Below, piece after piece: positions 4,027 to 29,775 of a stretch of 64,000 bases of DNA; within the stretch, counting starts at the first letter, position 1, and each line of letters opens with the position of its first letter. The position numbers were made by a program, and so were the translations under genes. The notes beneath the pieces are model-generated. The model searched no databases. It saw only the letters and a program-made list of their open reading frames with translations, and had not been told where the DNA came from. The stretch lies in contig MGVC01000005.1 of NCBI GenBank assembly GCA_001800285.1, positions 18,476-82,475 of the forward strand, read 5' to 3'. The DNA is from Elusimicrobia bacterium RIFOXYA2_FULL_39_19. GTDB lineage: Bacteria; Elusimicrobiota; Endomicrobiia; CG1-02-37-114; XYA2-FULL-39-19.

Positions 4027-4040
4027 TTTGTTTTAGGGGT

Positions 4041-5411: not shown

Positions 5412-5474
5412 AACATATTTTCCTGTTATTTTTCTGATCCTCTCCACTTGCAGATTGTGTCGCAATTTTGGAAT

Positions 5475-5611
5475 GTAGTGGCCAAGCTTGCTTGGCAATA
5501 TTAAATAGCACCGTCTTTTATCATCTGTCTGCCGACCAAGACCTACTATCCTTCCAAGCGGATGTCTGTAGGCACGAATAATGTTGCTGGTCGGCCACTA
5601 CCATTATAACA
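5475..5611 (-). promoter_or_regulatory. Nested inverted repeats plus an extended -10 (TGTTATAAT) in the hypA-hydG spacer
   Basis: Minus strand TGTTATAAT at 5603-5611. Inverted repeat pairs: GTAGTGGCC/GGCCACTAC (5593-5601 with 5475-5483), GCCGACCA/TGGTCGGC (5531-5538 with 5588-5595), CCTAC/GTAGG (5542-5546 with 5568-5572), ATCC/GGAT, and the hairpin GCCAAG-CTTG-CTTGGC (5481-5496). Confidence 0.35.
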
Positions 5612-5648
5612 CAGTATGTTGCGTGATGGCGAAGTGATGGGTGTGGCT

Positions 5649-5999
5649 TTACTTATCGCCTTCTATGCTTTCAAGATATATGTCTTTCCCCGAAACCAGC
5701 TCAATATTTTTGCTTTTACATTTCGGGCACCCATCAAAAGTAATGGTGTCCGCAGTAATTTCTTCCCCGCAATTCAGGCATTTTGAGCGCAGGGGCTCTT
5801 TTATTACAACAAGTTTTGCTTTGTCTGCTATGGTGCCGGGAAATATATGATCTATAAAACTGTGGCGCAACAGGTCTTCCAGCACACCGCCGGCTTCGCC
5901 TAGCTTTACTGTTACCTTGGTTACTTTTTTGAGGTTATTGTGCTTGGCTTCTATTAATAGTTTTTCAAACAAGTCTCTTGCTATACCGGTTTCATGCAT
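5649..5999 (-). CDS. hypA: [NiFe]-hydrogenase nickel-insertion protein HypA
   Basis: 116 aa with an MHETGIARDL N-terminus (the MHE metal-binding start typical of HypA) and a zinc site CLNCGEE..x..CPKCKS (CxxC-Xn-CxxC). Confidence 0.85.
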   Translation of the reverse strand: MHETGIARDLFEKLLIEAKHNNLKKVTKVTVKLGEAGGVLEDLLRHSFIDHIFPGTIADKAKLVVIKEPLRSKCLNCGEEITADTITFDGCPKCKSKNIELVSGKDIYLESIEGDK

Positions 6000-6064
6000 T
6001 GGAGTTTTCTCTTTCTTTGGGTTATTTAGGTTGATAAACGTTGGCAGGTGTTTCCTGTAGGAAC

Positions 6065-6093
6065 ATTCTACAAAATAAGGGCTCTCAATTCAA
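6065..6093 (-). promoter_or_regulatory. Sigma70-type promoter candidate for hypA
   Basis: Minus strand TTGAAT (6088-6093), 17 nt spacer, TAGAAT (6065-6070). It is followed by the near-palindrome TGTTCCTACAGGAAACA. Confidence 0.4.
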
Positions 6094-6137
6094 ACAAAAT
6101 GAAATCATGGTAGCCATTGCCGCCAGAACACGATTGA

Positions 6138-6166
6138 TTGACAATAATCTTCACTATTTATATAAT
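6138..6166 (+). promoter_or_regulatory. Consensus sigma70 promoter, TTGACA-17-TATAAT
   Basis: TTGACA at 6138-6143, a 17 nt spacer, TATAAT at 6161-6166. An ATG at 6173 lies only 6 nt after the -10. Confidence 0.5.
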
Positions 6167-6172
6167 TCTTTT

Positions 6173-6403
6173 ATGGCAGGCGAAATAGGAATTTCCAAAT
6201 GGTTGTCGTATTCTTCAGCGCAAAAAATAAAACATTTAAAAACTACCGAAAATAAACGCGCCGTTAAACTGCAGAAATTAACCTACGCACAAGCTGTAAA
6301 ACAAACCCACCAGTTGCTCCGTTATGTAGATTTATTGCCGCATAAAACACGCAGGCATAAACCTGTTGGTATTGGAGTTACCCTTGGCACACATAAAGTT
6401 TGA
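6173..6403 (+). CDS. Hypothetical small basic protein (76 aa), possibly leaderless. The coding status is uncertain.
   Basis: In-frame ATG (M45 of the listed ORF 6041-6403) directly after the consensus promoter. The Lys/Arg-rich sequence has no motif I recognise. Confidence 0.3.
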   Translation: MAGEIGISKWLSYSSAQKIKHLKTTENKRAVKLQKLTYAQAVKQTHQLLRYVDLLPHKTRRHKPVGIGVTLGTHKV

Positions 6404-6426: not shown

Positions 6427-6981
6427 TTACTTTTCCTGCAATAAAATAACGTTGCAATTCTTGTCAAATTCCTTTAAAACTTCCTGGCTGACTCTTTTAT
6501 AAATCTCAAAATCTTCATACACTATGGCAAACACACCGCTTTCTGACGGCTCTGCATTAATTGAAAGAATAGTTTTACCGTCATTCCATTTCAGCGTGCC
6601 GTCATTTATGCAGGCAGGCCCATAAATTGCATTATAATAATCGCATATTTTTCCGTGAAACCCGCAAAATTCATCCATAGAATCATTATCATTTATGGAA
6701 TAAATTGTATGTATGCTGTACAACTGCCTGTCGTAAAATATCAGATTAACATATTTCACATATTTGTTATCAACGTCGTTTAACAGTACATTGCCCCAAT
6801 GTTTACTGCTTTCCATATCCTTTTTATAGTTGCCGGTAAAAACCAGGTTGCTGAAACTGGTACCCAGCGTGTAGCCGTAAAGAGTGCGTTTCAGGCTTGG
6901 GCTTGAACGAAGAAGGGCCTGAGCGTTTAACATACTCATAAAACCGGATAAAACAATTAAAAACATTATAATCTTTTTCAT
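6427..6981 (-). CDS. Hypothetical secreted protein, last gene of the giant-protein operon
   Basis: N-terminal signal peptide MKKIIMFLIVLSGFMSMLNAQA. No recognisable domain. Confidence 0.6.
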   Translation of the reverse strand: MKKIIMFLIVLSGFMSMLNAQALLRSSPSLKRTLYGYTLGTSFSNLVFTGNYKKDMESSKHWGNVLLNDVDNKYVKYVNLIFYDRQLYSIHTIYSINDNDSMDEFCGFHGKICDYYNAIYGPACINDGTLKWNDGKTILSINAEPSESGVFAIVYEDFEIYKRVSQEVLKEFDKNCNVILLQEK

Positions 6982-7070
6982 AAAGCCTCCATTTTTTATA
7001 ACACCCTCACCTCAATCCTCTCCGATGAGGAAAGGATGAAAACAGAAGTATAATTTTGTTTTAATAAGTC

Positions 7071-8186
7071 TTATGGTGCAATATTATTTTCTGGCATGGG
7101 TAAACTTTCCAGCTTTTCTTCAGCCGGCACAACTTCCGGAACTGCTTGTATTTGTGGTTGCGTTTGGGTTTCCGGCGTTTTTTCTTCCTTTGCTTCTGGT
7201 ACAGTTGTCTGTACCAAATCTTTGCTTTTATTATATTTAAAAGGCATAGTCAGCGAAAGCCTGTAAGTATTTCCTAAATATCCGTACGGAGAAAAAGAGC
7301 AGTCCACATTTCCATAAGCACTGTTTATCCCAAACCCTGCAGACAACCCGCTGTCTGCCTGGTTGCGCCCGTTAAAACCAAGCCTTAGTTTTAGAATATG
7401 CAGTAAAGTATATTCAGCACCCATATTGATTATTAGCGGAACATCTTTTGAAAAGGTTGTATCAAAAGCAAAAAGCAGGTTTTGTTCAGGCAGAGTGTAT
7501 GCCGCGCCCAGTTTAAAATTTAACGGCAACTCTTCCTGCGTGCTGTAGAATTTTGCCCTTGTGCCAAGGTTTTGCAATACAGCTCCTGACTGAAAAACCT
7601 CATTGAATTTATACAAACATCCAATATCAATTGCTATTGCCTGTGTTTTTACAAAATCAATTCTTTCGTTTATATATTTCACGCTTAACCCGGCAGACAG
7701 CTTATCATTTAGTTGTTTTCCGCTGCCTAATGTCACCGCCATATCCTGTAAAAGATACTCACTCAGGCCATAGCCATTTCTATTTGAAATAGTAGTCCTT
7801 TGAATTGTGCCCCAGTCAACAATATTTATACTGCCGCCAAAACCAGTATTGGACACAAAGGCAAAATACCGCTGATTTATTTTCTGCAGCCAGAAAGTGT
7901 GCATAAAGTTTACTTCACTTCTTTTTATAACAGCCAAGCCGGCAGGATTATAGTACAAAGCATTAAAATCATCCGCTACGGCTGTAAAGGCCCCGCCCAT
8001 ACCTGCAGGCCTTATGCCTGTATCCAGCCTTAAAAAACCAAAAGGCGTAGTACCCGCACCTTCAGCAGACAAACGGATAGGCGCAGATAAAACACAGAAT
8101 ATACCGGCACAGAAAATCCAGAGCAGAACTCTGCTGTGTTTTCCTTTTAGAAATGAAAGTGTATTTTTTATAATTACCAGTTTCAT
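7071..8186 (-). CDS. PorV/PorQ-like outer-membrane beta-barrel protein
   Basis: Signal sequence followed by GFLRLDTGIRPAGMGGAFTAVADDFNALYYNPAGLA, which is the signature I associate with PorV-family barrels. The sequence alternates in beta-strand-like fashion down to an aromatic-rich end, followed by a Pro/Glu/Gln-rich tail. Its start codon overlaps the giant gene's stop codon (ATGA). Confidence 0.6.
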   Translation of the reverse strand: MKLVIIKNTLSFLKGKHSRVLLWIFCAGIFCVLSAPIRLSAEGAGTTPFGFLRLDTGIRPAGMGGAFTAVADDFNALYYNPAGLAVIKRSEVNFMHTFWLQKINQRYFAFVSNTGFGGSINIVDWGTIQRTTISNRNGYGLSEYLLQDMAVTLGSGKQLNDKLSAGLSVKYINERIDFVKTQAIAIDIGCLYKFNEVFQSGAVLQNLGTRAKFYSTQEELPLNFKLGAAYTLPEQNLLFAFDTTFSKDVPLIINMGAEYTLLHILKLRLGFNGRNQADSGLSAGFGINSAYGNVDCSFSPYGYLGNTYRLSLTMPFKYNKSKDLVQTTVPEAKEEKTPETQTQPQIQAVPEVVPAEEKLESLPMPENNIAP

Positions 8187-11100
8187 TTTATTATCCCCAG
8201 CTTAAATACTTTTCTCTCTCCCGTGCTTGACACAATAACCGCCAGATACCCGCCGCTTGCTAATTCAGAGCCGTTATTATTTTTTACATCCCAGTTAAAT
8301 GTACCGGATGATTCAATATAACTGTCAAAAACCAGTTCACCGCTTACCGTATAAATATATATTTTTACCGCTTCCGTAAGATTTTCAAATACTATACCGG
8401 ACTGCGAATTGCCCTGGCTGTAGGGAATACCGTTATCATCAGCACCGTCATAAGGCACATACGGGTTCGGATAAACCAACACATTATCAAGGTTATTTGA
8501 AGCAGCTGCAAATATACCAAAAAGGCTGAAATGGCCTACTTGTATAGATGCCGTATTATTAATTTTGTCTACTGTTGTTTCCGAATCCTTTTTCCAAATA
8601 CGGGATGATTCATCATAATAAAGGATTTTTATATTTTCTTCCCGCATATCCGTATCATCAATTATTCCGTCATTATCTTCATCTGCGTAAGCTATAATTA
8701 TAGTTACATTTTTCAATAAGGTTTTCTGCCCGCTTGCCAATTCAATACTTCTGAACATTCCCGCGGATTTATATTTCCTGTCTGATGACGGAATTGAAAG
8801 CGGGTTAATGGCTACTTTTACCAAATCAAAAGAACCGGAAAGAGCCCCCTCCGGGATAATAATTTCGGTAAAATGTTTTTTATTAATATCAGCTAACTTA
8901 ATGCTGTTTTCTACATTGTTATATATTTTCTGTGTTTTTTCCGGGACCCCATTTTGTATTTTTTCTTCCATATCAGGGCTTATTCTGTCAATGACTACAT
9001 TAACCGTTTCCGGATTATTGTCATAATTTCCTGTCTTATCATAAGCTACACACCTTAACTGATAATTCCCCTGCAAGAAATCAGATTCATTGCTTACATC
9101 CCAAAAATAGTTATAAGGGTATGTTGCATCCGGATTGGTAAACAACGAACCAGTAGAATAAATATTATGCCATTCATCCTCAGAAGCCTTCCTGTACTGG
9201 AAATAAACATACCTGATATCAGAACTCTCACCTGATGTTATCTCGCTGGTCAACGTTATCCTGTTGCCGCTTATTTTCTCGCCTTCTTTAGGCGCTGTTA
9301 TTTCAACCTTTGGCAAATCCACATAGTTTGATATATTTGTTATCCTGAATTCTGAAGACTTATAAGGAAATGTATTGTTTTTATCTGAAACCATAGTCTG
9401 GGGCACAATAGTCAAACCGCTAAACTCTTCAAGCCGTATACCGGTATAATCATTTTCTGTTGAATTCATTGAAAGATCTGTATAACCCACATCTCCTACA
9501 ATATATAGTTTTACTTCAGCGGTTGATATATAAAGACCGGTTGATTCTATTGATAGACTTGCCATTCCTGAAACGAAATTCATGTTTGGATTGGCTCCTG
9601 TTGAATGTGGAATGGATGAAATAAATACATCAGTTGTTGCATCAAATTTTCCATCACCATACGGAAAAGCAGCACTGGTTGCCTCTTTCCAGATACTCAG
9701 GCACGAAAAATCACCCTGGCCCTTTCCCGGAATAAGCGATGTTTCTACCGTACCTGTTTGTTTAAGCGTTATATTGGTAAGTAAAGCATGGTTAGTATTA
9801 GTTTTCAGCCGTAATAACATAAGCGGAACATTTTTGCTTCCATATTTCGTATATACAGGGGCATAATTTTCTGATTTTACAATCAGCCCTATAGGGGTTA
9901 CCGGGAGCAGGCTGGTTTTACAGTAATCAAAACTTGTTGAATTGCCTAACTGTACGCCGGTATTGGTTTCAAGTACCAATAATGGAGAAACATCGTGCGG
10001 CAATCTTAACTTTATCCAGCCGCTGTCTGGAATTTTCAGGCCTATTGTATTTCCAGCAACCGCATTATCACCCATATCGTAAGCTATGAAATATGTTTGA
10101 TTTGATGGATTAAGTTTCTGTATGTTTGTCAGATAAATCATTTTTGTTTTGCTTAAATCATTGCTTAAATCAAACATATCAACTTTTTTAATTAAATCAC
10201 CGGAATTTAATTGTTTTCTTACGGTACCGTACTTCCCGCGTTCAACTATCCTTAAAAACGGTTTCGGCCCTGTTGGCGTAATTGTAGTTCCCGCCAGGGA
10301 ATACCTCATAATCTCATCGCCTGCTTTTACAAGCAGCTGCTGTTGCCCGGTAGGGAAAGTTCCTGTAAGAGTAATCGTTGACTCAACTATCAAATCAAAA
10401 GGCAGTGGTGTATATATTGAGATATAATTATAGTATACCCCATCGGAACATAACGAACTTATTTTTGTTTCTGCCTCTGAGATGCACTGGTCATCGGCGT
10501 CAAGAATGTTGTTGTAGTTTGCGTCTCTAAATATTTTTATATACTTCACATCAGAGTTTCTTCCCTCCGGTTTTGTCTGGTCCAAAGGGCCGCCTGTGCC
10601 GGTACGCTCAACCTGAATAGCGTCCCAGTTACAATTGGATTTATCGGTACGCAGTTTTAGCCTCATCATTTCTACGTTTGACTGGGACTGAAATGCACCG
10701 CTTGCAAAATGCACGTAATAAGCGCTGTCTGATACAGTAGCAGATACAGCAACCTGAACTTCCTTTATTTCTGCTGTCTGAGTTATAAACGGAGCTGTAG
10801 GCCAGAGAAATTCTACACCATCCGGAACCTGTACAGTAAAATATGTTTTGTCCAGAATACTGGCTCCTACTGTTTTACTTATTTGGGCAAATTGGCTGAT
10901 ATCATAAGTTAAATAGTATGTCTGTAGTGTAGCGGTTATGGTTCTGGCGTCATAATAGTTGTCTTCTGTTTTAAGCAACAGCGTGGCAGCCTTTTCAGTG
11001 AACGTATCACTGCCATAAGTTATTAGGCCGCAAGGCTGGCTGTTTATCATAACTGTTGATTCAAACACGCTGTATTCAGAAGTAGATGTAATTACTTTCC

Positions 11101-14100
11101 AGATTTTAATCTTACTCACATCAGCATCTACTCCTGTCCCGGTTAAATTAACTTTTATGCTTTCCCATAAAGCGGTATTTCTATTTGTTTTCATTGACAA
11201 TTGTATTACTGGTACATTTTCTGCATAACGTTCTACAGTACTCATTAATTCTGATGAGGGGGTTATATACACAGTATCAACGGTTGCTACAATCGGCATA
11301 TTAGCAGTTTTTATAGGAAAGGCAGGTATCTCACCTAATCCAATAGGCACATAAGTTGATACTCTGTGCCGCATCTCTTCTGACGGATGATTTACGCCTA
11401 TTTTGTCCTCTCCTGTTATTTCTGCGCCAATTATTTCATTTTGCCAGGAAATAAGCGGATGAGAGAATTTAGCCGACGGGCTGACATCATAAGTTATGAA
11501 ATATGCCGTTGGCGTGGTAGTAACAAGTATATAACCCCTGTTAATTGCCGGGTCATTTAAGTAAAGGCGGCCTCTGGAATTATCATAAACGCCTGAACCA
11601 ACAAGCGTGTCAGCAGTTACAATTCCCCTGTATTCAGGTGAAGCAAATCTATCCAGCCTGCTGTTTCCATTATCATCACGGTAAACTTTTATATTTAGTA
11701 AATCACTGTCTGCACCGAATAATAAGTATGACGGCGTGGTACGGGTTATGGTAATGGTACCCATTTCCACCTGAAAACCGTCAGCCCATAAATCAAGTTT
11801 CTCTACTGCAAAGTTTTTCACTCCCTGAGTTACCTGCACGCCAAAAACTACACCCGATGAATGACTGGCAGCAAAACTGCCCAGAACACCACGGGTAATG
11901 CCTGTAATAGAATTTGCTGTTTTTCCCGTGTATTTTATAATTTCACTTTCTATAACTGCATAACCGCTTGCAGGAATTGCCAGTGTTGGCGTAGGACGGC
12001 CCAGGGAATCATTTGAAAACAGATAAAGGACATCTGCGCCTGCACTTAAATTTCCACTTAACCGCGGAACCTCGTAGGTTGAAAGTGTGCCTGTTTCTTT
12101 TGGGTCATCATCAGAAAAAATCGGGGCTGATTTTACAAATATAGTCCTGGGTGATGATGCTATTGTTTTTAAAGTGCTTTTCCAGGGAAGGCCGATGTCA
12201 TCCAGATTATCGGGTTCTGATATGAAATCATCTTCGGTTTGAACGAGATTATCTTCATCTGTCGGGAAGCTTTCTGCTGTAAGTCTTACACCAAGGTTTT
12301 TTGGGTCACCGGTTCTGGGGTTAGTGGTTAATGCAGTTTCGCTGATATCGTAAGTTATAAAGTATCTTTGCGATTTTGCTACTCCGGCTCTGGCGGCAGT
12401 AATTATTTCCTGTACCTTACTTGAATTAAATCTGATAAGGGTTGCTAACGCATCGCCGGCATTACTGAATGTTCCAGAACCTACCAAAACATCATAGTCT
12501 GTGCCTGCATAAAAATAAGGGGTTACCGGACTTTTATTTAACATTCTGTCATTATTTGCGTCATACCAGACTTTAACTACCGGTACTTCCTCCTGCACGG
12601 CGCCGCCATCGTAAGAGGCTGTACCGGTGGAATATATTCTGATTGCATACCACAAAGCTTCAGACAAATCCGTTTCCAGGGTAAACTGCGCCATAACATT
12701 ATCTACTGAACCCTGAACTAAATATTGTGTATAAATATAATCAGTTGGTTTCACCAATACATCATCAGGATATTCTTTAACCTGTGACACGTAAGATTCA
12801 GTCCACCCTGTTGCCGCCCATTCAGTGCCAATCCACTGGTTATTTCTAGGGCTTCTTAAACCTACCTGTGCCTGCACATTGCCCATATAATCCGGAGAAT
12901 TGATGGTGAAGTAACCGGTTGATGGAATTTCCACGCCCAGTTTAAGCGACGCATCTACCGTACAAACAGGGCTGTAATCAAAGGTAATAAAATAATTTTT
13001 AGGTGTTTGCCGGATTTCCTGCACCCCACTAACGTCACCTACTATATCCAGCCGTGCCGGGCCAGACACAATAGCTCCGCTGGTATGGGATTTAGCGGTA
13101 GTTTTATCCTGCCCGCGGACAACACCTGTAAACAAATTATTATCTTCATCAACCCCGGTATAAGTAACTATTTCAAGTTTTGACGGGTCCCCGTTATCAT
13201 CAATAATTAATTTACCCGGCGCCTTAGGCACAGAACAAAATGGCGGGAAGAAAACCCCAATATCAGCTACCTCAATTACACTGGCAGACTCATTAATACT
13301 TTCAGCTAATTCTGATACAGGAAACTCCATAAGTGAAAATTGCGGGTTCTGGTCAACCACCATCGAATCGGTAACTTCGAACATTCCGTCATTGTTGCTG
13401 TCATACCACAGCTGTATTTTATCTACATCTGTAGGCAGGCTGAGTGTTCCTTCCGGCACGCCTGATGTGGCATTTCTGTATATAGACCTATCAAGTTTCA
13501 GTCCGCCCCACAGGCCGGTTCTCTGAACTGTTGCCATGGTAAGTTTCATTACCGTTATGTTTGCATCACCCTGGGTTACTACCCCGGTTACAGTAAAATT
13601 CACGCTGGATACACTGGTTTCCTGTTTGTTTACGTTATAAACATTCAGTTCATCAACTGTGGCTGTCACTACAACTTTGGTAGATTCAATAGAGGCATAA
13701 GACTGCATAGCACCTTCTAATAAGGTTATGCCGTTTATCTGGGCACCGTGCGTATAACCGGGAGTAGCGGAATTTTCAATTTTGTAGGTTATAAAAAAGT
13801 ATCTGCTGGTACAATCAATTAACTGAGGTGTTGAAAGCATACACTGGGCGCTTCTGTCTGTAAACGGTACCCAGTTTGTCAACGCATCATCGCCTCCGGG
13901 TTCTAAAGCTCCGTTGGGGTTTGAACCAGCATCTATCCTGCCGTCATTCGGGCTGGAATCTTTTCCGTCCATATATATTTTTACGCCTACTATGTCATAA
14001 TCCTGGCCGGTGCCTGTTCTGCCTACTTTTATTTCGCTTATCGCCCCCTGAAACATAGGGGCGCTGAATGCTACCCTTAACATTCCAATATCAGATTCAC

Positions 14101-17100
14101 CCTGCTGCATGTAGGAGTAAGTAATAGGCTGTGTGGTGCCTTCAAGTTGGTAATAAGCGGCAATATCCGTTAACTGCGCATAAACTTTCGGCGGTGATTT
14201 TTCTACTGCCCAGGTGGTGGTAACTATTTCAAAATTGGCCTGGGACACACCAATAGTTCCTGAAGTTTGTATAGACTGGTAACTCTGCAACCGTAACCCA
14301 AAATATGTACCGGTAGTTGCGCTGGTGGCTATGCGCACTGCAATGAAATACGTTTTAGGTAAAGTATTTACTGAAACTTCTGGTTTTACGCTTAAATTTC
14401 TGAAGTACCAGGCGTCAGTGCCCGCATCATACTCAGCATCACAAAGTTTAGTGTCTGTTGGTTGGCCGCCACTTACAAGTTCCGGGTCAAAGTAATAGTT
14501 GCCGCTTGCGTCATAGTAAAGACTCATCTTACTAATACTGCTGGAAGGCGTATTGCCAAATTTTTCTACTTTTATCTGTTCCAGTTTTTCTGTAAGATTG
14601 GCTTCCACAGGCAGGGTTACCATAGTAAGTCCGGCCATACCAAACGGCTGGAAGTTTTCTACAATATCCCCGTCACCCTGATACACTTTCTTAGAAATAA
14701 CTCTTGATAGATAATTAGAACCTCTCAACAAATTTTCCGGGTCTAATATCGGTGTTACTTTTATGCCTGAAGTTACCAGGTTCGCATCTGAATGTGCTGT
14801 TTCAACTCTTGTGCTGTCATTAGTCCAGCCGTACACTACACCATCCGCAGGATAATCCAGCGCCTGAGTAACAGGAGATGCATAATGAGTAGCGCTGATT
14901 TTTAGTGATTCCTGCATCTGGTTGATTACCTGCAACCCCTGCCAGACACCGCTGTCACTTTCTGTATAAGCATAATAGGTTGCACTGCCGGGCATAGCTC
15001 TTAGTGTTACTGCGGTAGTGGAGCCGGTATGTGCAAACTTTATTATACCTTTATAATACTGACCGTTGGTGCTATCGCCGGATGCCACATTACCAAACCG
15101 GTCTCTGGCTTTTACGGTAACCGTGCCGTTTGAATTTACCGGCAATGGATTTGTTAAGGGATAACTGTGGTGAATTGTAAAAAACCTTGCAGGAGCAGGA
15201 GTGATATACTGGTTCTGTGTTGCAGATACTAACTGTATTGAACCGCAGGTTCCCTCAGCTCTCAATGTACTGGTACCGGCTTTTGTATCAAAGAAATATA
15301 TGGAATGCTCTGAAGAACCCGGGGGTATAATACCCGGCAGGAAACCGCCCTCGCAAATACTGGGCCAGTCAGCGCTAAGCATTAAATTTTTTAAAGGGTT
15401 TTCACCGGCACGGGCAGAAGTTGAATTTGTACAGGTATAAACTATGCTTGTAGCATCAGAAGAAATAGTAACATTATCTGACTGGTCCCTTAACTGGATA
15501 GTTATCACTGTAACGGTTTGAACACGGTTTGAATAAGAGCTTAATGGAACAGGTAAAACGGCTGATGAAAACGGATTGTAGCCTTGCACGGAATATGTAG
15601 AAACAACACTTCCTAAATTTCCGGAGCCGGTATACGCAATGGTTGTACCAGCAATTAATCTTCTTGATTCCGTTATAAAAACAAAATGATGGGGGTTCCC
15701 CGCAACTACTGAATAAGTCTGCACAGCTACAGCCCAATCTGTCTTTGCCGGGTTCTGCGCAGTTATTTGAAAATTCCCCAGATTGGTATCTATCATGTAA
15801 AAACTGGTGGTGTCATCACCTATATTTAACGTAACAATATCAACCGCAGGTTTTGCTACCCACCCGGAAGTAATATTTGGCGAAGCAAACCTCACATTCC
15901 CTGTACCGGTAGAATTAAGGTCAAAGATACTCATAACTTCTTCACCTGTAATTACCGGTGACGGGTTGGAAAACTTGTCCTGTGTCTGCAGTAAAAAAGC
16001 TGATGATGTAGTACCGGCCGCCAATATCTGATGAGATGATATTATGGCCAGTTTCTTTATTGGTGATGCCGTTATCGGTACGTATTGGCCGGAGCCCGGT
16101 GTTTCCCAACTTCCGCTTGAAGCTTTTACATGAGGCATGGTGGAAGCAGCAATATTATATGGCGGATAAGTTTTTGATGCTTTTGTATCTGCATACCAGA
16201 ACTGGGTGGCATATTGGCCGGCTGAAATTGAAGCCGTTGAGGTGTGCATCCACGGTGAAGATGTAAGTGAGAAGGAATAATTTCTGCCGTATTCCGTAGT
16301 GGCAATAGTATCCACTTCGCTTTCAAACGTTAACCTGTGCAAATAATCTATGCGCAATGAATTACCTGCCCCGGAATCACTCTGCAGGTTCATGGTAGTG
16401 TCTACGTTTACAGCTTTCGGGTTGCCGTAAGTATCCTGTGTTTCTATTTCAAGCACCTGCAAGCTATTCTGGTTGTTATAAACTATACCCGCCAGTAACG
16501 GCAGTGTGGTTGAAGGAATAACATCAAAACCTACCTGAGTTATAGCGCCCGGGTTTACATTAAATGTTGTTGAACCAACATAGATACCATACTCAACAGA
16601 AGCTGTCCATTTACCTATTGACGGACGCGCAGGCAGAGCGGCGGTAGCCGTGCCCTGAGAACCGTCTTCGCCTGCAGGCCATGAAGCATACATATCTGAA
16701 TACCTGAATGATGCCTGTGAATTGGCTGCAGGTACCGGCCATACTGCCGCGGACCATATAGGTATAGCTACATCATACATGCTCAGCATAGTATCGGTAG
16801 TTTTATTCCAATATTTCTTCTGTGAATTTAGTACAGAAGGTGAATCAGTTTTCAGCTGGGTGCCGATAGAAAGAGAAACTATGTTTGTTTCACCCGTCGG
16901 GTTATTCCAGTAATCGCGTTTTTCAAAAGTAAATACGGTAGATTTTATGTTACCCGCAGAAGCTTCAATGTCTGACGGTGTAGTTACAAACTGGAAGCGG
17001 TATAAATCACCGCCGGTAGTCATAATGTTTACAGATTTACCTGTAATGGTTGCACCCGCAGCGGTAGATACCTGCACCTTGGCATAATGGCCTCCGGTAG

Positions 17101-20100
17101 TGGATACCTCATAGTATAATTCTTTGCCTAGGCCGCCCACTTCACCATTGCTGTCGGTTGTAGTAGAAGTAATTACATTGCCGGAAGCATCTTTTATAGT
17201 TCCTGAAGAACCAAATACATCCACTACACTTAATACCGCGGAAATATTTGAACTTGAAACCTGGTTTTCATAAGAGTCGGCAATAAACGCTTTTACCTGC
17301 TGACGGTTAGGCACGCCGCCGGAGATGCCCGCTTTTACATAGATCGGGTCGGTCCACGGGCTTGGTATAGCAAATGCAAACTTGCTGGGGTCTCCCGGCC
17401 TTACTTCTATTACCGGTCTGTTTGAATATCCTGACCTATTGGCATCTATCAGGGAATCTGTGCTCTGGCGCCAGTTTATCCAGCGGGTACCAGCCTTTTT
17501 TAGTTGAATGGTAAATAAGTGTGAACCGGCATCTGCGTCAGTAAACACATAGTGTTCTCCGCCGCTGCCGGGTAGAGGTTCTGGATTCTGCAGTGAATTA
17601 TCAAAGTCCGTAGGAGCAATTTCTGCCAAGAACTGCACTTCACCGGTGTATCTGGTGCTTCCGGTAGAACATATATTGTGGTATCTGTCTTTTACATTTA
17701 TTCTTACATTGTAATCTGAACCAGCATAAGCCCAGGTAGAGCCGCGCACAGGGTCAATATAGCTTGTACCCTGCATGTAGTAGGCGGCGTCCGGCCATAT
17801 TCTTATCTGGCTGGATTCTTTAGAAGTATATTTTACAGCCGCGGTTGACCAGTCAACCGACACGCAGGTCCAGGAAGAAGAAGCAGTCAACGGCCTTACG
17901 CTGAAGGCTCTTGAACCGAAAGCCAAGCACTGTATGGTTGGCTCAGAATCCTGATAATCCCAGGTGGTTACCGTGCAGGAAGGCATATCTACACCTGACA
18001 TAATCCTGTTATACCAGATATCTGTTAATACAACATCTATGTTAAAGGCATCCCCGGCTGTATGCACAGTTGGCTGGGTATCGGTCCTGCCGTAAGGAGC
18101 AATGTTCCATTTTCCGGGAACGTGGGTTTCACCCGGCACCACCACAAGTAAAAATGCCGGCGAAGATGGATTTACTGTAAACTGCCTGCTGCTGACATCT
18201 GTAATATATCTCGGGTCAGAACCATCAACATCCTTGGTCCAGAGCATATGCCAGGTAGCAGCAGTTTTGAGCTGTATTTGAAAAGTATTGCTGGCGCTTA
18301 TGTCGCCGAGTGGTGACGTGGATGAATTGGCATCATAAGGGTCATTGGTTTCTACCGTCACTTCAGGCATGGTTATTCCGGGTAGTGACGGAAATATTCC
18401 TTTATTATAAGTATTGTAGTAGTTATCTACTAAGTTTACTGTTACTTCAAACACAGTACCGGCAGTCTGGGTTACCGGAGAACCTGTTTTACCGTTAGCA
18501 GTGCTAACATTTAAACCCCATGCCGGCGTTTCACCAGGAAGTATTATCTGGAGATGGTTCGGAGTGCCCGGTAGTACAGTGAAAGTGGATACGGTATAAT
18601 CCGGTGCACTGTTTGGATATTTTGTATAAGTACCATAAAGTTCTTCCGCAACTGCATAGTGGTAAGTGGCGGCACGTTTTAAACCAGTAGTGAAACTGGC
18701 TGTCTTGTAACCCGGGTCTGTACCGGTAATTGTTATCTGAGCTGGTTCTACATTATAAGGATCCGTAGGAGTGTATAGAACAATGGTTCCCTCTGCACCG
18801 GATACAATATTGAAGTTGCTGTCTGTAATGGCCACAGTAACATCAAATGGGGCACCAGCGGTTTGTTGTGATGGACTGCCTGTTTTACCATAAGGTGAGT
18901 TCATGTCAAAGTTTTGGCCTGGTAAAAGAACCAGAAGTTTTGAAGCTGTGTTGCTAACAACCGGGACCTTTGAGCTGGGCTGGGAATTAACCATAATTCC
19001 GGGATATCCCTCACCTTCCACCCAGCTAAATGCCGACATTCTTATACGCCAGCCGGTATTGCTGGATGTTGAAAAAACCCATTTTTCAGAATCATCTAAA
19101 ATATATTGTCCGTTTGAAACCCATATACTTCTCCCAGTTACCTGCGGGTCGTTAGGGTCACCGTCTGCTCCATCAGACATAAGTGTTAGAGTAGGATTTT
19201 CATCAGTCTGGTTATAACATTGGTCCAGGCATAAAACAGTTGTTTTAAAACCCACACCAGCAACCTGTGCTGTTGGGTTGGAAGCTTCCGTTTTTCCCGG
19301 TTGAGAGCCGGTAACTTTACCGTCAACATGGGTTTCACCCGGTACCAATATCTGAATTCTGTAGGGAACATTTGTAGTAATGGCTATGCTCTGGGTATAA
19401 TCATATTTATAATTACTGCAATAATCTGTAGTTGCTGTGATGATAGTATTTTTCTTTGTTACAAGCGTAATGCCAAATGTCGTAGTCCCGGAAAAAAGAG
19501 TTTTTGTACTGGGGTGCGTGTCATATAAATCATCGGTAATTATGCTGACATTTATTCCGGTAGTAGTTACTGAATTGTAATAGTCATCACATGCATCTAC
19601 GGTTACATTAAACGATTCTCCCGCTTTATGGCTGGTTGGATAATTATTGGACATTCTGCCTCTTGTAGAAATATTACCGGCATCCGGTAATTCCCCTGGA
19701 GCAAGAATTCTCAATCTTTTAGCACTTCCTGGAATTATGTTAACAATATTTGAATCATATGTACCCAGGCTTCCGGTTGCCCTAACTGTCCAGGTGGAAG
19801 CAGTATTCATCATTACGTTATTCCACACATTCTGTCCCATAGTTAAGCCCTGGCTTCTGGAATAACTACAATAAGGGTCTGTTACCGTTACAGACACCCC
19901 TCCCATTACAGCAGTGGAACATAAGTTATAATAATTATCCGTAACACGCACAGTTACAGGAAACACTACACCAGCTGTCTGAAAACTAACGCTATAATTT
20001 TTTCCTCCGGTTCCGTCACCAATTGGCTGCTGGGTTACATTTTCTCCATAAGGAGGCTTGCCGGGAGCAGGCACTTCATTCGGCAAGATTACATGGTAAC

Positions 20101-20917
20101 GTGTAACTAAATTCGGATAAACCCTTATTTCAGAACTTGTACCGGTTGATAACCAGATATCGTTGCCATTATAATTAAGAGCTTCTGTTGGATATGCTTT
20201 TACATAATGCGTTGCATAACCTGTCAGACCTGCCATTTCTGCATTAAAAACAGTTATGGTTGTTATACTTGAACCATTAATCAAACAAACATAATTTGTT
20301 TTTGATCCATATTGATCGGTAGATTCAACATACACTATGGGGTTTGCGTCAGAAATAGTATTCCATTGTAAATCTGTGGCTTTTATTGTTATGGCAAATG
20401 GTTGGCCTGCAGTAAATCTTGAAATCGGTGTTCCTGATTTTCCAGTTGAAGAACCCGGATTTTGTGTTTCGCCGGGAACTAAAATAAGCAACTTTGATGG
20501 ATCGGAAAGCGGGTAGGCTGTTGTATTATTTGAAACACCTGAAAATAATTCCAAGGGTCCTGAAGAGACCCAGATTCTAAAATAGTATAACTTATCGCTT
20601 TGAAGGCCTGTTATTACGTAATTCTGTCTGTTCCCGGAATTAACAGAACCTGTTGATAATACCAGATTTCCGCTTGTGCCCGTACTCCAGGCAATACTTT
20701 CAAAAGTTGATTTTTGAATTTCATACCTGCTCCCAACGGGTATAGTAAATGGGCCTGGATAGGTCCAAATTAAACGGACCTCATAAGAGTTCTGACCGGT
20801 AACAGCCGAAAGATCAGTTACCGCTAAAGATTGAGCAAATATGTTTTGAATACTTATAACAAGTATAAGAATACAAAACATAATTCTGATATTTATCACT
20901 TTATTCTTAAACATCAT
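8183..20917 (-). CDS. Giant (4244 aa) secreted cell-surface repeat protein / putative adhesin with a T9SS-type C-terminal sorting domain
   Basis: Uninterrupted 12.7 kb ORF with a GAGGAAAAATG RBS. Features: signal peptide (aa 1-28), an FN3-like segment (aa 33-120), two internal module families (listed separately below), Ig-like segments, and a C-terminal LVYPNP...GGYLAVIVSSTGERKVFKLGIIK. Confidence 0.9.
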   Translation of the reverse strand: MMFKNKVINIRIMFCILILVISIQNIFAQSLAVTDLSAVTGQNSYEVRLIWTYPGPFTIPVGSRYEIQKSTFESIAWSTGTSGNLVLSTGSVNSGNRQNYVITGLQSDKLYYFRIWVSSGPLELFSGVSNNTTAYPLSDPSKLLILVPGETQNPGSSTGKSGTPISRFTAGQPFAITIKATDLQWNTISDANPIVYVESTDQYGSKTNYVCLINGSSITTITVFNAEMAGLTGYATHYVKAYPTEALNYNGNDIWLSTGTSSEIRVYPNLVTRYHVILPNEVPAPGKPPYGENVTQQPIGDGTGGKNYSVSFQTAGVVFPVTVRVTDNYYNLCSTAVMGGVSVTVTDPYCSYSRSQGLTMGQNVWNNVMMNTASTWTVRATGSLGTYDSNIVNIIPGSAKRLRILAPGELPDAGNISTRGRMSNNYPTSHKAGESFNVTVDACDDYYNSVTTTGINVSIITDDLYDTHPSTKTLFSGTTTFGITLVTKKNTIITATTDYCSNYKYDYTQSIAITTNVPYRIQILVPGETHVDGKVTGSQPGKTEASNPTAQVAGVGFKTTVLCLDQCYNQTDENPTLTLMSDGADGDPNDPQVTGRSIWVSNGQYILDDSEKWVFSTSSNTGWRIRMSAFSWVEGEGYPGIMVNSQPSSKVPVVSNTASKLLVLLPGQNFDMNSPYGKTGSPSQQTAGAPFDVTVAITDSNFNIVSGAEGTIVLYTPTDPYNVEPAQITITGTDPGYKTASFTTGLKRAATYHYAVAEELYGTYTKYPNSAPDYTVSTFTVLPGTPNHLQIILPGETPAWGLNVSTANGKTGSPVTQTAGTVFEVTVNLVDNYYNTYNKGIFPSLPGITMPEVTVETNDPYDANSSTSPLGDISASNTFQIQLKTAATWHMLWTKDVDGSDPRYITDVSSRQFTVNPSSPAFLLVVVPGETHVPGKWNIAPYGRTDTQPTVHTAGDAFNIDVVLTDIWYNRIMSGVDMPSCTVTTWDYQDSEPTIQCLAFGSRAFSVRPLTASSSWTCVSVDWSTAAVKYTSKESSQIRIWPDAAYYMQGTSYIDPVRGSTWAYAGSDYNVRINVKDRYHNICSTGSTRYTGEVQFLAEIAPTDFDNSLQNPEPLPGSGGEHYVFTDADAGSHLFTIQLKKAGTRWINWRQSTDSLIDANRSGYSNRPVIEVRPGDPSKFAFAIPSPWTDPIYVKAGISGGVPNRQQVKAFIADSYENQVSSSNISAVLSVVDVFGSSGTIKDASGNVITSTTTDSNGEVGGLGKELYYEVSTTGGHYAKVQVSTAAGATITGKSVNIMTTGGDLYRFQFVTTPSDIEASAGNIKSTVFTFEKRDYWNNPTGETNIVSLSIGTQLKTDSPSVLNSQKKYWNKTTDTMLSMYDVAIPIWSAAVWPVPAANSQASFRYSDMYASWPAGEDGSQGTATAALPARPSIGKWTASVEYGIYVGSTTFNVNPGAITQVGFDVIPSTTLPLLAGIVYNNQNSLQVLEIETQDTYGNPKAVNVDTTMNLQSDSGAGNSLRIDYLHRLTFESEVDTIATTEYGRNYSFSLTSSPWMHTSTASISAGQYATQFWYADTKASKTYPPYNIAASTMPHVKASSGSWETPGSGQYVPITASPIKKLAIISSHQILAAGTTSSAFLLQTQDKFSNPSPVITGEEVMSIFDLNSTGTGNVRFASPNITSGWVAKPAVDIVTLNIGDDTTSFYMIDTNLGNFQITAQNPAKTDWAVAVQTYSVVAGNPHHFVFITESRRLIAGTTIAYTGSGNLGSVVSTYSVQGYNPFSSAVLPVPLSSYSNRVQTVTVITIQLRDQSDNVTISSDATSIVYTCTNSTSARAGENPLKNLMLSADWPSICEGGFLPGIIPPGSSEHSIYFFDTKAGTSTLRAEGTCGSIQLVSATQNQYITPAPARFFTIHHSYPLTNPLPVNSNGTVTVKARDRFGNVASGDSTNGQYYKGIIKFAHTGSTTAVTLRAMPGSATYYAYTESDSGVWQGLQVINQMQESLKISATHYASPVTQALDYPADGVVYGWTNDSTRVETAHSDANLVTSGIKVTPILDPENLLRGSNYLSRVISKKVYQGDGDIVENFQPFGMAGLTMVTLPVEANLTEKLEQIKVEKFGNTPSSSISKMSLYYDASGNYYFDPELVSGGQPTDTKLCDAEYDAGTDAWYFRNLSVKPEVSVNTLPKTYFIAVRIATSATTGTYFGLRLQSYQSIQTSGTIGVSQANFEIVTTTWAVEKSPPKVYAQLTDIAAYYQLEGTTQPITYSYMQQGESDIGMLRVAFSAPMFQGAISEIKVGRTGTGQDYDIVGVKIYMDGKDSSPNDGRIDAGSNPNGALEPGGDDALTNWVPFTDRSAQCMLSTPQLIDCTSRYFFITYKIENSATPGYTHGAQINGITLLEGAMQSYASIESTKVVVTATVDELNVYNVNKQETSVSSVNFTVTGVVTQGDANITVMKLTMATVQRTGLWGGLKLDRSIYRNATSGVPEGTLSLPTDVDKIQLWYDSNNDGMFEVTDSMVVDQNPQFSLMEFPVSELAESINESASVIEVADIGVFFPPFCSVPKAPGKLIIDDNGDPSKLEIVTYTGVDEDNNLFTGVVRGQDKTTAKSHTSGAIVSGPARLDIVGDVSGVQEIRQTPKNYFITFDYSPVCTVDASLKLGVEIPSTGYFTINSPDYMGNVQAQVGLRSPRNNQWIGTEWAATGWTESYVSQVKEYPDDVLVKPTDYIYTQYLVQGSVDNVMAQFTLETDLSEALWYAIRIYSTGTASYDGGAVQEEVPVVKVWYDANNDRMLNKSPVTPYFYAGTDYDVLVGSGTFSNAGDALATLIRFNSSKVQEIITAARAGVAKSQRYFITYDISETALTTNPRTGDPKNLGVRLTAESFPTDEDNLVQTEDDFISEPDNLDDIGLPWKSTLKTIASSPRTIFVKSAPIFSDDDPKETGTLSTYEVPRLSGNLSAGADVLYLFSNDSLGRPTPTLAIPASGYAVIESEIIKYTGKTANSITGITRGVLGSFAASHSSGVVFGVQVTQGVKNFAVEKLDLWADGFQVEMGTITITRTTPSYLLFGADSDLLNIKVYRDDNGNSRLDRFASPEYRGIVTADTLVGSGVYDNSRGRLYLNDPAINRGYILVTTTPTAYFITYDVSPSAKFSHPLISWQNEIIGAEITGEDKIGVNHPSEEMRHRVSTYVPIGLGEIPAFPIKTANMPIVATVDTVYITPSSELMSTVERYAENVPVIQLSMKTNRNTALWESIKVNLTGTGVDADVSKIKIWKVITSTSEYSVFESTVMINSQPCGLITYGSDTFTEKAATLLLKTEDNYYDARTITATLQTYYLTYDISQFAQISKTVGASILDKTYFTVQVPDGVEFLWPTAPFITQTAEIKEVQVAVSATVSDSAYYVHFASGAFQSQSNVEMMRLKLRTDKSNCNWDAIQVERTGTGGPLDQTKPEGRNSDVKYIKIFRDANYNNILDADDQCISEAETKISSLCSDGVYYNYISIYTPLPFDLIVESTITLTGTFPTGQQQLLVKAGDEIMRYSLAGTTITPTGPKPFLRIVERGKYGTVRKQLNSGDLIKKVDMFDLSNDLSKTKMIYLTNIQKLNPSNQTYFIAYDMGDNAVAGNTIGLKIPDSGWIKLRLPHDVSPLLVLETNTGVQLGNSTSFDYCKTSLLPVTPIGLIVKSENYAPVYTKYGSKNVPLMLLRLKTNTNHALLTNITLKQTGTVETSLIPGKGQGDFSCLSIWKEATSAAFPYGDGKFDATTDVFISSIPHSTGANPNMNFVSGMASLSIESTGLYISTAEVKLYIVGDVGYTDLSMNSTENDYTGIRLEEFSGLTIVPQTMVSDKNNTFPYKSSEFRITNISNYVDLPKVEITAPKEGEKISGNRITLTSEITSGESSDIRYVYFQYRKASEDEWHNIYSTGSLFTNPDATYPYNYFWDVSNESDFLQGNYQLRCVAYDKTGNYDNNPETVNVVIDRISPDMEEKIQNGVPEKTQKIYNNVENSIKLADINKKHFTEIIIPEGALSGSFDLVKVAINPLSIPSSDRKYKSAGMFRSIELASGQKTLLKNVTIIIAYADEDNDGIIDDTDMREENIKILYYDESSRIWKKDSETTVDKINNTASIQVGHFSLFGIFAAASNNLDNVLVYPNPYVPYDGADDNGIPYSQGNSQSGIVFENLTEAVKIYIYTVSGELVFDSYIESSGTFNWDVKNNNGSELASGGYLAVIVSSTGERKVFKLGIIK
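8186..8494 (-). other. C-terminal sorting domain (T9SS type A CTD / FlgD-Ig-like), aa 4142-4244 of the giant protein
   Basis: NLDNVLVYPNPYVP...VKIYIYTVSGELVFDSY...FNWDVKNNNGSELASGGYLAVIVSS...KVFKLGIIK. This matches the PNP start, the strand pattern and the terminal K-x-x-K typical of Por-secretion tails. Confidence 0.6.
9398..14644 (-). repeat. Eight divergent ~180-290 aa protein modules (aa ~2092-3840)
   Basis: Each module has [LM]xLx(8-12)Wxx[IL]xVxxTGTG..., then [IV]K[IVL][WY]xDxNxN/DGxxD, and ends in x-YF[IL]TYD[IV]S....G. The YF motif occurs at aa 2189, 2373, 2641, 2851, 3138, 3333 and 3608. Asp/Asn-rich loops occur at aa 2134-2144, 2313-2329, 2503-2514, 2783-2794, 3077-3089, 3460-3476 and 3750-3760. 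Confidence 0.7.
17768..20491 (-). repeat. Seven tandem ~120-140 aa protein modules (aa ~143-1050)
   Basis: Motif: LxI[LV][LVA]PGE-x(5-20)-GK[TS]G.P..QTAG..F.VTV...D..[YW]N. It starts at aa 143, 275, 402, 520, 660, 789 and 922. Examples: LLILVPGETQNPG..GKSGTPISRFTAGQPFAITIKATDLQWN and HLQIILPGETPAW..GKTGSPVTQTAGTVFEVTVNLVDNYYN. Confidence 0.75.
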
Positions 20918-21129: not shown

Positions 21130-21168
21130 AAAAAACCGAGTGAAAGCATTGGAAAATGCCACTCGGTT
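21130..21168 (-). terminator. Intrinsic terminator in the giant-gene leader, candidate riboswitch expression platform
   Basis: The minus strand reads AACCGAGTG-GCATTTTCCAATGCTTT-CACTCGGTT followed by TTTTAAA: a perfect 9 bp stem plus a U tract. It lies ~70 nt after the aptamer and ~210 nt before the start codon. Confidence 0.65.
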
Positions 21169-21234
21169 GAGTTTACGACACTGTAACCTTACTGCGGTTT
21201 TTGGCGGCCTGGCGGTCATTGGACATTCCTCTTT

Positions 21235-21340
21235 TTTAGGCGTCTGCGCTTCAACTCCCTAGAACCGTTGGAGTCAGGCGTCCTTTAGACCCATAGCTTT
21301 GCGCCCGTCGGTTTCCCGGCGTTTGCTTTTATCAATTTTT
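21235..21340 (-). promoter_or_regulatory. c-di-GMP-I (GEMM-I) riboswitch-like aptamer
   Basis: The minus strand reads AAAAGCAAACGCCGGGAAACCGACGGGCGCAAAGCUAUGGGUCUAAAGGACGCCUGACUCCAACGGUUCUAGGGAGUUGAAGCGCAGACGCC. It lines up with the Vibrio Vc2 aptamer as I recall it (GGGCAAACCAUUCGAAAGAGUGGGACGCAAAGCCUCCGGCCUAAACC...). Shared elements: GCAAAC, a 6 bp hairpin capped by a GAAA tetraloop, G(A)CGCAAAGC, and a GGxCUAAA receptor-like segment. The long 3' helix closes as GGGUCU/AGAC(G)CC. Confidence 0.65.
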
Positions 21341-21398
21341 GTCAGTTTTGGTTTTGTAGAGCCAAGGTAATTTGTGCTTTTTGTCACACCCTGATATG

Positions 21399-21427
21399 TA
21401 TATAGTATGGAAAGATAGTAAAGTCAA
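21399..21427 (-). promoter_or_regulatory. Sigma70-type promoter candidate for the riboswitch / giant-protein transcript
   Basis: Minus strand TTGACT (21422-21427), 17 nt spacer, TATATA (21399-21404). Confidence 0.45.
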
Positions 21428-22141: not shown

Positions 22142-22200
22142 ATAAGTATTAACGCTGAACGCTAAATTGAAAATCAATAAATATAAAACCTACAATAAAG

Positions 22201-22524
22201 TTATTTGTCTTTTTCATAATGGTCACAGACTGATTTTTCCCACGGCTTTACGCCGGAAAGATGTGCGGCGCGTGAAATAGCGTGGGCAGATACCGGCGCT
22301 GTAAGCAGTAAAAATAATGCGCAAAATATTGCTTTTATACCCACATCAGTAAATCCGTGGATTACAAATACGCCCAGCATAATGCCGCAGGTGCCGAACG
22401 TTACACATTTTATTGAGGCATGAAGCCGGTTATATAAATCCGGAAGCCTTACTAAACCCAAGCAGCCAATAAAATCAAAGGTTATCCCTATTCCTATAAA
22501 TATATACCCTATTAAATCAATCAT
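22201..22524 (-). CDS. mnhG: Mrp/Mnh antiporter subunit G
   Basis: Small 3-TM protein containing GCLGLVRLPDLYNRLHA, typical of MnhG/PhaG. The ATG at 22524 overlaps the mnhF stop codon (ATGATTGA). Confidence 0.75.
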   Translation of the reverse strand: MIDLIGYIFIGIGITFDFIGCLGLVRLPDLYNRLHASIKCVTFGTCGIMLGVFVIHGFTDVGIKAIFCALFLLLTAPVSAHAISRAAHLSGVKPWEKSVCDHYEKDK

Positions 22525-22852: not shown

Positions 22853-22863
22853 TTTATATACCT

Positions 22864-23358: not shown

Positions 23359-23372
23359 GACTCGCCTTTTAT

Positions 23373-24845: not shown

Positions 24846-24848
24846 ATT

Positions 24849-25657: not shown

Positions 25658-25669
25658 ATTTTTTTCCTG

Positions 25670-26191: not shown

Positions 26192-26192
26192 A

Positions 26193-28040: not shown

Positions 28041-28042
28041 TT

Positions 28043-29764: not shown

Positions 29765-29775
29765 TTTATTCCTGT

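Follow-up and report, generated by a model that had tools for sequence, protein, structure and literature searches.

The stretch analysed here, referred to as the window, comprises 64,000 nucleotides (64 kb) of a contig of Elusimicrobia bacterium RIFOXYA2_FULL_39_19, and the locus in question is an array of three genes on its minus strand, in which a 4,244-aa open reading frame (ORF; 8183..20917) is followed by a 371-aa ORF (7071..8186) and a 184-aa ORF (6427..6981). The first encodes a giant secreted protein with a tail related to type IX secretion system (T9SS) C-terminal domains (CTDs), the second an outer-membrane β-barrel protein of the PorV/PorQ family, and the third a small secreted protein. 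As the initial annotation had claimed, the giant and the barrel genes share an ATGA stop/start overlap of 4 nt (8183..8186 (−), DNA ATAAAATGAAACTG), where the TGA of the giant gene (8183-8185) lies over the ATG of the barrel gene (8184-8186). The barrel ORF, which holds the motif GMGGAFTAVADDFNALYYNPAGLA quoted in that annotation, has no other in-frame start ahead of its hydrophobic signal-peptide segment, and the small ORF is separated from it by 89 nt that include a GGAGG ribosome-binding site. Proteins A2252_08045 and A2252_08040 of the same bacterium match the barrel and the small protein, respectively, at 100% identity, and the locus sequence recurs on several metagenome contigs, among them ones from JGI, ENA (ANAN16) and Logan assemblies. 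The three genes are best explained as a single minus-strand operon, transcribed from a leader that contains a riboswitch of the cyclic di-guanosine monophosphate (c-di-GMP) type and a terminator hairpin.

The second gene product consists of a signal peptide, an N-terminal plug with an NPA motif, a 14-strand barrel and a 55-aa C-terminal tail rich in Pro, Glu and Gln. It matches the NCBIfam PorV/PorQ family model NF033709 over profile positions 1-325 of 326 with 163.1 bits against a cutoff of 90 (E 1.2e-47). A profile of 30 barrel sequences retrieves the Flavobacterium johnsoniae PorV from the PDB over its full length (6h3i_F, E 9.9e-41) and TodX at E 5.6e-5, with no match to FadL in that search, and the sequence identity to PorV is about 20%. 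In the AlphaFold2 model (mean predicted local distance difference test score, pLDDT, of 84) a helical N-terminal plug and 14 long strands are followed by a disordered tail of 55 residues, and the top PDB matches of the model are PorV 8gl6_F (E 6e-15) and 6h3i_F (E 6e-13) with a template modelling (TM) score of about 0.6, then FadL and TodX. The predicted structure has the features of the FadL fold that mark the PorV/PorQ family, namely 14 strands and an N-terminal plug behind a signal peptide. Among the Pfam models, UPF0164 scores above its threshold (40.9 bits), Toluene_X (PF03349) reaches 26.5 bits against a gathering threshold of 29.7 and covers just the 30 residues that surround the NPA motif, and PF19572 (PorV) stays below threshold; no PorP/SprF family appears among the Pfam and NCBIfam matches at E<=0.1. 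The reading of this protein as a PorV/PorQ-like barrel, made in the initial annotation, is borne out, and the FadL/OmpP1 assignment, which had been set beforehand as the result that would speak against it, gave way to PorV in both sequence profile and fold. The contrast of the two is partly a false one, since PorV has the FadL fold as well (PMC12578637).

The last ~105-110 residues of the giant protein (8186..8515 (−)) are, by profile comparison and predicted fold, homologous to T9SS CTDs, and among these they lie nearest to the uncleaved PorZ/PorU kind. In the PorZ model, the last 105 residues align with the CTD segment (E 3e-10), and they also match the C-termini of the PorU model and of a model for M6-like T9SS substrates. 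In a family alignment of 47 sequences drawn from related loci, matches to the C-terminus of PorZ are seen for 41 members and to that of PorU for 36, and 29 match the type-A CTD model TIGR04183 (E<0.01); the type-B model TIGR04131 gives no match for the window tail and weak ones for two of the 47. Against the PDB, the family profile finds residues 667-758 of PorZ (5m11, E 1.1e-11) and residues 1082-1154 of PorU (6za2, E 2.9e-5), and profile searches with the tail return FlgD matches too. With 20 homologues from databases as input, AlphaFold2 predicts the domain to be a 7-strand sandwich (pLDDT 87); structurally it is again matched best by PorZ (E 8e-6, TM 0.67, root mean square deviation 2.8 Å), followed by the translocon-bound CTDs of NucA, RemZ and RemA, and then by FlgD and PorU. 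By definition, a T9SS CTD is a sandwich of 7 strands in a 3+4 arrangement (PMC11285876), and the window tail likewise is predicted as a 7-strand Ig-like sandwich of the expected size (~80-100 aa) at the extreme C-terminus. The family has a C-terminal Lys-containing motif in the 47-sequence alignment, a feature typical of type-A CTDs (PMC10994853). The window tail itself is not assigned to type A by the curated cutoffs of TIGR04183 or PF18962, the latter giving no report in the Pfam scan, nor does the locus have the combination of a type-B CTD with a PorP/SprF barrel. Of the claim that the giant carries a T9SS-type CTD, homology and fold thus stand, whereas the curated CTD cutoffs are not reached.

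The passenger region of the giant protein (residues 1 to ~3870) starts with an N-terminal signal peptide and continues with about five PGET/PGEL repeats and six matches to a YFITYD-like motif. It has no significant match in Pfam, NCBIfam or the PDB sequences, and a BLAST comparison of the giant protein with itself finds no internal repeats, the repeats being discernible as motifs only. A C-terminal module of ~375 aa (aa 3870-4244, 8186..9310 (−)) is common to the nearest Elusimicrobia relatives, with BLASTP identities of 31-37% over aa ~3848/3870-4244 to the upstream ORFs of the related loci L011, L012, L013, L015 and L017 (L numbers denote related loci throughout). N-terminal of this module, BLASTP gives no alignment to the upstream ORFs of related loci, and the resemblance is confined to the last 105-397 residues. 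The giant protein is likely a Sec-exported surface protein, either an adhesin or a matrix protein.

The pairing of the two genes is conserved well beyond the window. When one genome per GTDB species was scanned with the barrel alignment, 80 loci came up, 73 of which are testable for an upstream CTD gene; 25 of the loci belong to Elusimicrobiota and the others to Zixibacteria, Ignavibacteria, Calditrichota, Gemmatimonadota, Fermentibacteria, Bacteroidota, Lindowbacteria, Desantisbacteria and further groups. The CTD profile places a CTD gene right upstream of the barrel, in the same orientation, at 53 of the 73 loci; these include 20 of the 25 from Elusimicrobiota, where one further locus has it directly downstream. 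The ATGA overlap recurs in 16 of the 53 pairs, all closest relatives included, another 25 pairs have a gap of 30 nt or less, and the nearest relative of the barrel (54% identity) is likewise overlapped by its upstream CTD gene by 4 nt. Gene overlaps of 4 nt are by themselves frequent in bacterial operons, but here the overlap is more than chance, because the homologous genes adjoin in most testable loci and the same ATGA is retained in 16 of the pairs. The upstream proteins form many unrelated groups, among them S8 subtilases with FG-GAP repeats, Kelch propellers with fn3 domains, β-helices with fn3 domains and a protein with a ubiquitin-family domain. An exhaustive phmmer search of 1.84 billion representative proteins with the 110-aa tail finds 2,654 proteins with E<=1e-3, of which 408 reach E<=1e-10; the best 150 of the 2,654, up to 6,616 aa long, all have the domain at their extreme C-terminus. 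A word-index search with the last 200 aa of the giant returned nothing, not even the giant itself, which reflects a limit of the word index given the 2,654 relatives found by HMMER. In the reverse direction, six of eight sampled CTD genes have a barrel gene directly downstream (three of them OmpA-fused), one is without and one lies at a contig end. The initial annotation had proposed a dedicated cargo-barrel pair acting as a private module, and the conserved pairing with variable passengers strongly supports it.

Several further arrangements are seen among the relatives. Each of the two families has a single member in the window itself, one CTD and one barrel. Single metagenome-assembled genomes (MAGs) can hold two separate barrel loci (L009 with L019, and L031 with L088). 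Giant CTD proteins that have no adjoining barrel are encoded at L096 4001-17404 (4,467 aa) and L093 4818-24668 (6,616 aa), and PLD-like (PLDc_2) domains recur N-terminally in, or just upstream of, giant CTD proteins (L092, L093, L096). Two or three tandem CTD genes precede one barrel at L092 (3-2441 and 2801-19900) and L053 (5046-9870), and therefore some barrels may serve several cargos. A conserved block of three genes, coding for a ~920-aa protein, a ~1,000-1,200-aa CTD protein and a PorV-family barrel, recurs in Ignavibacteria, Calditrichota, Chlorobiales and related MAGs, at about 19-20 loci that include L032, L039, L043, L044, L046, L047, L053, L055, L057, L058 and L064. The ~1,000-1,200-aa upstream ORFs in these phyla of the Fibrobacteres-Chlorobi-Bacteroidetes (FCB) group were considered as PorU, in porU-porV operons, and rejected, as eight of them have no NCBIfam match at 1e-6 and three none in Pfam; a placement of CTD-less barrels after tolB-pal was also discarded, Pfam showing amidohydrolase and LptE, or ABC permease, genes instead. 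At L009 1206-3761, the Elusimicrobia CTD protein paired with a barrel begins with a ubiquitin-family domain (PF00240, E 2e-23), unusual in a secreted bacterial protein, followed by a NosD-type β-helix, and at L015 10989-11157, ~3 kb downstream of the related pair, lies a domain of a group II intron (RF02003, 75 bits).

The 597-nt gap upstream of the giant gene contains a c-di-GMP-I (GEMM-I) riboswitch aptamer (21200..21337 (−)), which lies on the strand of the giant gene and 283 nt upstream of its ATG. It matches the full model (1-87) of RF01051 with 61.3 bits against a gathering threshold of 35 (E 1.5e-9) and has a 54-nt insertion in one hairpin; the covariance model assigns it to the GEMM-I class, whose ligand is c-di-GMP or cyclic GMP-AMP. 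The aptamer is followed by a terminator-type hairpin, AACCGAGUG / CACUCGGUU with a U-run (21130..21168 (−)), which is present in both the minimum free energy (MFE) and the centroid folds and is a candidate expression platform; it was missed by the terminator scan because its loop is 17 nt long. About 210 nt beyond the hairpin a GAGGA precedes the giant ATG. Upstream of the riboswitch, a promoter-like TTGACT-17 nt-TATATA (21399..21427 (−)) is read by eye as a putative promoter, having been omitted by the consensus scan because its −10 hexamer ends in A. These leader elements (21130-21427) lie outside the coordinates of the initial annotation and are absent from it. The closest CTD relative, L091, has an aptamer of the variant c-di-GMP-I-GGC class (RF03167, 2487-2569) 87 nt upstream of the start.

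At the periplasmic side, many homologous barrels are extended C-terminally by TPR, OmpA or fn3 domains, and in L020 (Lindowbacteria) a WD40+TPR gene overlaps the stop of the barrel. Such OmpA- or TPR-fused barrels, or the overlapping WD40+TPR gene, are seen at L020 6670-7953, L091 7833-9266, L097 5176-6570 and L098 11200-12594. The window barrel has only its Pro/Glu-rich tail at this position. PorE is composed of TPR, WD40 and OmpA domains. In the PorP-PorE-PG1035 assembly, a cargo-bound barrel is tied to the periplasmic PorE, a proposed peptidoglycan anchor (PMC9143113).

Among the known systems, the locus can be likened by analogy to PorZ-PorQ and PorU-PorV of Porphyromonas gingivalis, in which the uncleaved 7-strand CTD of a surface protein is held by a 14-strand barrel of the PorV/PorQ family. 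The window CTD is nearest to that of PorZ in sequence and fold, followed by PorU, and the PorQ model gives the barrel a better score (107 bits) than the PorV model does (70). Unlike PorZ and PorU, the passenger has no match to a C25 peptidase or to the PorZ β-propeller, the barrel fails both equivalog cutoffs, the host belongs to Elusimicrobia, and no sortase context for anionic lipopolysaccharide (A-LPS) is visible. The window genes also overlap, whereas porZ and porQ are not known to be adjacent in P. gingivalis. With the type-B systems SprB-SprF and PG1035-PorP-PorE, in which the CTD cargo pairs with a cognate PorP/SprF carrier encoded next door, the locus shares the position of a giant adhesin-type gene immediately before its own carrier or anchor barrel gene (PMC9143113, PMC12618676), and the TPR/OmpA fusions or adjoining WD40+TPR gene of its relatives recall PorP-PorE; the window CTD, in contrast to SprB-SprF, is not of type B and the barrel is of the PorV/PorQ family. 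PorV on the SprA translocon (6h3i, 8gl6) is the best sequence and fold match of the barrel and has the NPA plug motif in common with it, but the window barrel is only ~20% identical and shorter, there is one barrel per cargo compared to one PorV for dozens, and no SprA is known from this organism. The 14-strand barrel with an N-terminal plug is also shared with FadL/TodX and BamG, although for FadL/TodX the sequence similarity is far weaker, no transport-substrate context is present, and the window barrel is paired with a CTD protein. LapA is a c-di-GMP-controlled giant adhesin retained in the outer-membrane pore LapE, and GEMM-I riboswitches are found upstream of adhesin and pilus genes. A very large repeat-rich surface protein, an outer-membrane barrel as its holder and governance by c-di-GMP would make the window locus analogous to LapA-LapE, but LapA is non-homologous, is a substrate of the type I secretion system, has an N-terminal retention module and is controlled post-translationally via LapD/LapG, as opposed to a riboswitch in the leader.

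Taken together, the locus is probably a cyclic-dinucleotide-controlled operon for a giant surface protein, likely an adhesin or matrix protein, and its own carrier or anchor barrel. In T9SS, CTDs bind to extracellular loops of PorV (PMC10994853), and PorU and PorZ are the two proteins with uncleaved CTDs, staying bound to PorV and PorQ, respectively (PMC10947112, PMC10202324). In the proposed mechanism, the CTD formed by the last ~105 residues would dock non-covalently on the extracellular face of the co-translated 14-strand barrel and remain uncleaved, so that the 4,000-residue passenger would be held at the cell surface as in PorQ-PorZ, PorV-PorU and SprF-SprB of Bacteroidota. The giant and the barrel would be made in a coupled fashion through the ATGA overlap, the periplasmic Pro/Glu-rich tail of the barrel may link the complex to the periplasm or the cell wall, a position where relatives have TPR or OmpA, and the cyclic-dinucleotide level would decide on read-through into the operon.

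A number of observations weigh against this interpretation. First, both equivalog models are failed by the barrel, that for PorQ (NF033711) with 107.2 against 220 bits and over profile positions 7-214 of 335 only, and that for PorV (NF033710) with 70.4 against 250 bits; PorV2 is also failed (41 against 325 bits). Since the family cutoff is passed and both equivalog cutoffs are failed, the protein is a PorV/PorQ-family member but an orthologue of neither. Compared with the F. johnsoniae PorV it is shorter, residues ~256-319 of PorV being left out of the profile alignment, and its loops may therefore differ from those of PorV. Next, the window tail stays under the curated cutoffs of TIGR04183 (15.3 against 23 bits), FlgD_ig (PF13860; 18.2 against 27) and CHU_C (PF13585; 15.7 against 27). 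The pairing is frequent but not obligatory, as 20 of the 73 barrel loci have no adjoining CTD gene and not all sampled CTD genes are paired. In one such locus, from Zixibacteria (L079 9395-10903), a PorV-family barrel directly follows the lipopolysaccharide (LPS)-assembly gene LptE with no CTD neighbour, which suggests a second, housekeeping context for the family. Apart from L091, no riboswitch was found in the related loci scanned (13 of 14 without), and in the MFE fold of the window leader the aptamer and the terminator coexist, so that the ON/OFF logic is not evident from the fold. Finally, the adhesin role is suggested by just the size, repeats, signal peptide and riboswitch.

Of the alternative explanations, one would refine the preferred reading and specify the export route. 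It takes the barrel for a cargo-specific carrier of a complete but unrecognised T9SS, with SprA/Sov and PorK/L/M/N encoded elsewhere in the genome; the barrel would dock at the lateral opening of the translocon, collect the giant by its CTD and carry it off. Both partners are homologous to T9SS parts, a 4,244-aa passenger requires some large translocon, and like pairs exist in the FCB-group phyla Ignavibacteria, Calditrichota, Zixibacteria, Gemmatimonadota and Bacteroidota. A 2025 review highlights the discovery of T9SS in the FCB superphylum (PMC12398890), and the carriers of F. johnsoniae load their substrate within SprA (PMC10994853). Opposed to this, family scans of the ORFs find none of the T9SS core genes sprA/sov, porK/L/M/N (gldK-N), porU, porZ, porT and porW in the 64-kb window, just as the initial annotation had stated for T9SS core genes in general, TXSScan places T9SS in Bacteroidetes only among 1,528 diderm genomes (PMC4793230), and no paper linking Elusimicrobia to T9SS or PorV was found in the literature searched. 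We regard such a hidden T9SS as a serious possibility, though below an even chance.

Somewhat more doubtful is the idea that Elusimicrobiota, Lindowbacteria and Desantisbacteria lack the T9SS translocon and motor, and that the CTD and barrel form a self-contained modular surface display system, with help from the barrel assembly machinery (BAM) or another factor. Whatever passenger is fused to such a CTD would then be exported and anchored by its own barrel. The strict form of this, to which we assign a still lower probability and which we consider unlikely, is an autonomous two-gene display, where a BAM-assembled barrel and a CTD suffice to expose and hold the passenger without any T9SS motor or translocon, similar to a split autotransporter or to the BamG-BamH style of barrel and surface-protein assembly. 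It would agree with the nearly 1:1 pairing of cargo and barrel, their tight coupling, a phylum without a described T9SS and the short length of the barrels (~300 aa) relative to PorV; BamG also sets a precedent for a barrel of the FadL fold that serves a surface protein as its platform in BAM (PMC12578637). However, no known plugged barrel of 14 strands translocates a protein of several thousand residues. Identical pairs are also present in the FCB-group phyla where T9SS has been described (PMC12398890), and therefore autonomy is not required to explain them.

The giant could also be an ordinary type-A cargo served by a single general PorV, with its CTD cleaved by a PorU-like sortase for LPS attachment or release and the gene adjacency being incidental. 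While the TIGR04183 matches of 29 of the 47 family CTDs and the Lys-containing motif typical of type A (PMC10994853) would fit, most loci have one barrel per cargo gene and single MAGs hold two barrel loci, the CTD is nearest to the uncleaved PorZ/PorU type, and the PorV equivalog cutoff is failed (70 against 250 bits), which makes this explanation improbable. Equally among the unlikely ones, and the least credible of all, is a FadL/TodX-type hydrophobic channel or LPS-related protein unrelated to the giant, whose tail would be a generic Ig-like or FlgD-like domain: it is favoured by the common fold and NPA plug motif, the Toluene_X (26.5 bits) and UPF0164 (40.9 bits) scores, the FlgD matches of the tail and the one homologous barrel after LptE, but PorV is ahead by about 35 orders of magnitude in E-value and is the best structural match as well, Toluene_X is under its cutoff, and the adjacency and overlap are conserved across phyla with changing passengers.

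The third gene of the operon (6427..6981 (−)) encodes a 184-aa secreted ORFan with an N-terminal signal-peptide-like segment and is possibly co-transcribed with the other two. A search of 5.8 billion proteins finds only the protein itself, it has no Pfam or NCBIfam family, and in the nearest relative the barrel is followed by a Fic protein instead. The small secreted protein noted earlier is therefore present but outside the conserved module. Between it and hypA, a perfect sigma-70 consensus TTGACA-17-TATAAT (12/12) is found at 6138-6166 (+), antisense toward the small gene and inside a plus-strand ORF of 120 aa (6041-6403) that has no family match; no Rfam family or tRNA is found there.

The operon sits between the [FeFe]-hydrogenase maturases HydE/HydG with HypA (2848-5999) and an Mbh/Mrp-type hydrogenase cluster (21515-33490). 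Besides HypA, HydG and HydE, the other ORFs of the window include a partial DnaE, the Mbh/Mrp-type membrane hydrogenase with Fe-S and flavin subunits, a radical-SAM/SPASM/PqqD/ScmC cluster, two-component and sigma-54 regulators, nucleotide-biosynthesis enzymes, a branched-chain amino-acid ABC transporter, NfeD and band-7 proteins and pyruvate kinase. The radical-SAM/SPASM, PqqD and ScmC-family genes (33624-36412 (−)) lie beside a GAF-ANTAR regulator and possibly function in peptide maturation, unrelated to the CTD-barrel pair.

Cognate carrier barrels have so far been established for type-B CTDs (PorP/SprF) and for the PorZ/PorQ and PorU/PorV pairs, all of them inside Bacteroidota. What is new here is a PorV/PorQ-family barrel that probably acts as the cognate carrier of diverse giant passengers with a PorZ-like CTD, an arrangement widespread in Elusimicrobiota, a phylum with no T9SS described in the literature searched. 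The locus and its ~50 relatives suggest a general, modular way of mounting very large and diverse passengers, including proteases, Kelch propellers, β-helices and unknown folds, and the riboswitch provides a direct regulatory handle by which signalling through a second messenger is linked to surface display in this uncultured lineage. If the pair is indeed self-contained, it would be a candidate evolutionary precursor of the carrier and attachment parts of T9SS and effectively a new outer-membrane secretion and anchoring pathway. The question raised is thus whether a T9SS-type CTD and its carrier need SprA and the Gld/Por motor: if they do, T9SS would extend well beyond the FCB group, and if not, the pair would represent a minimal, ancestor-like system.

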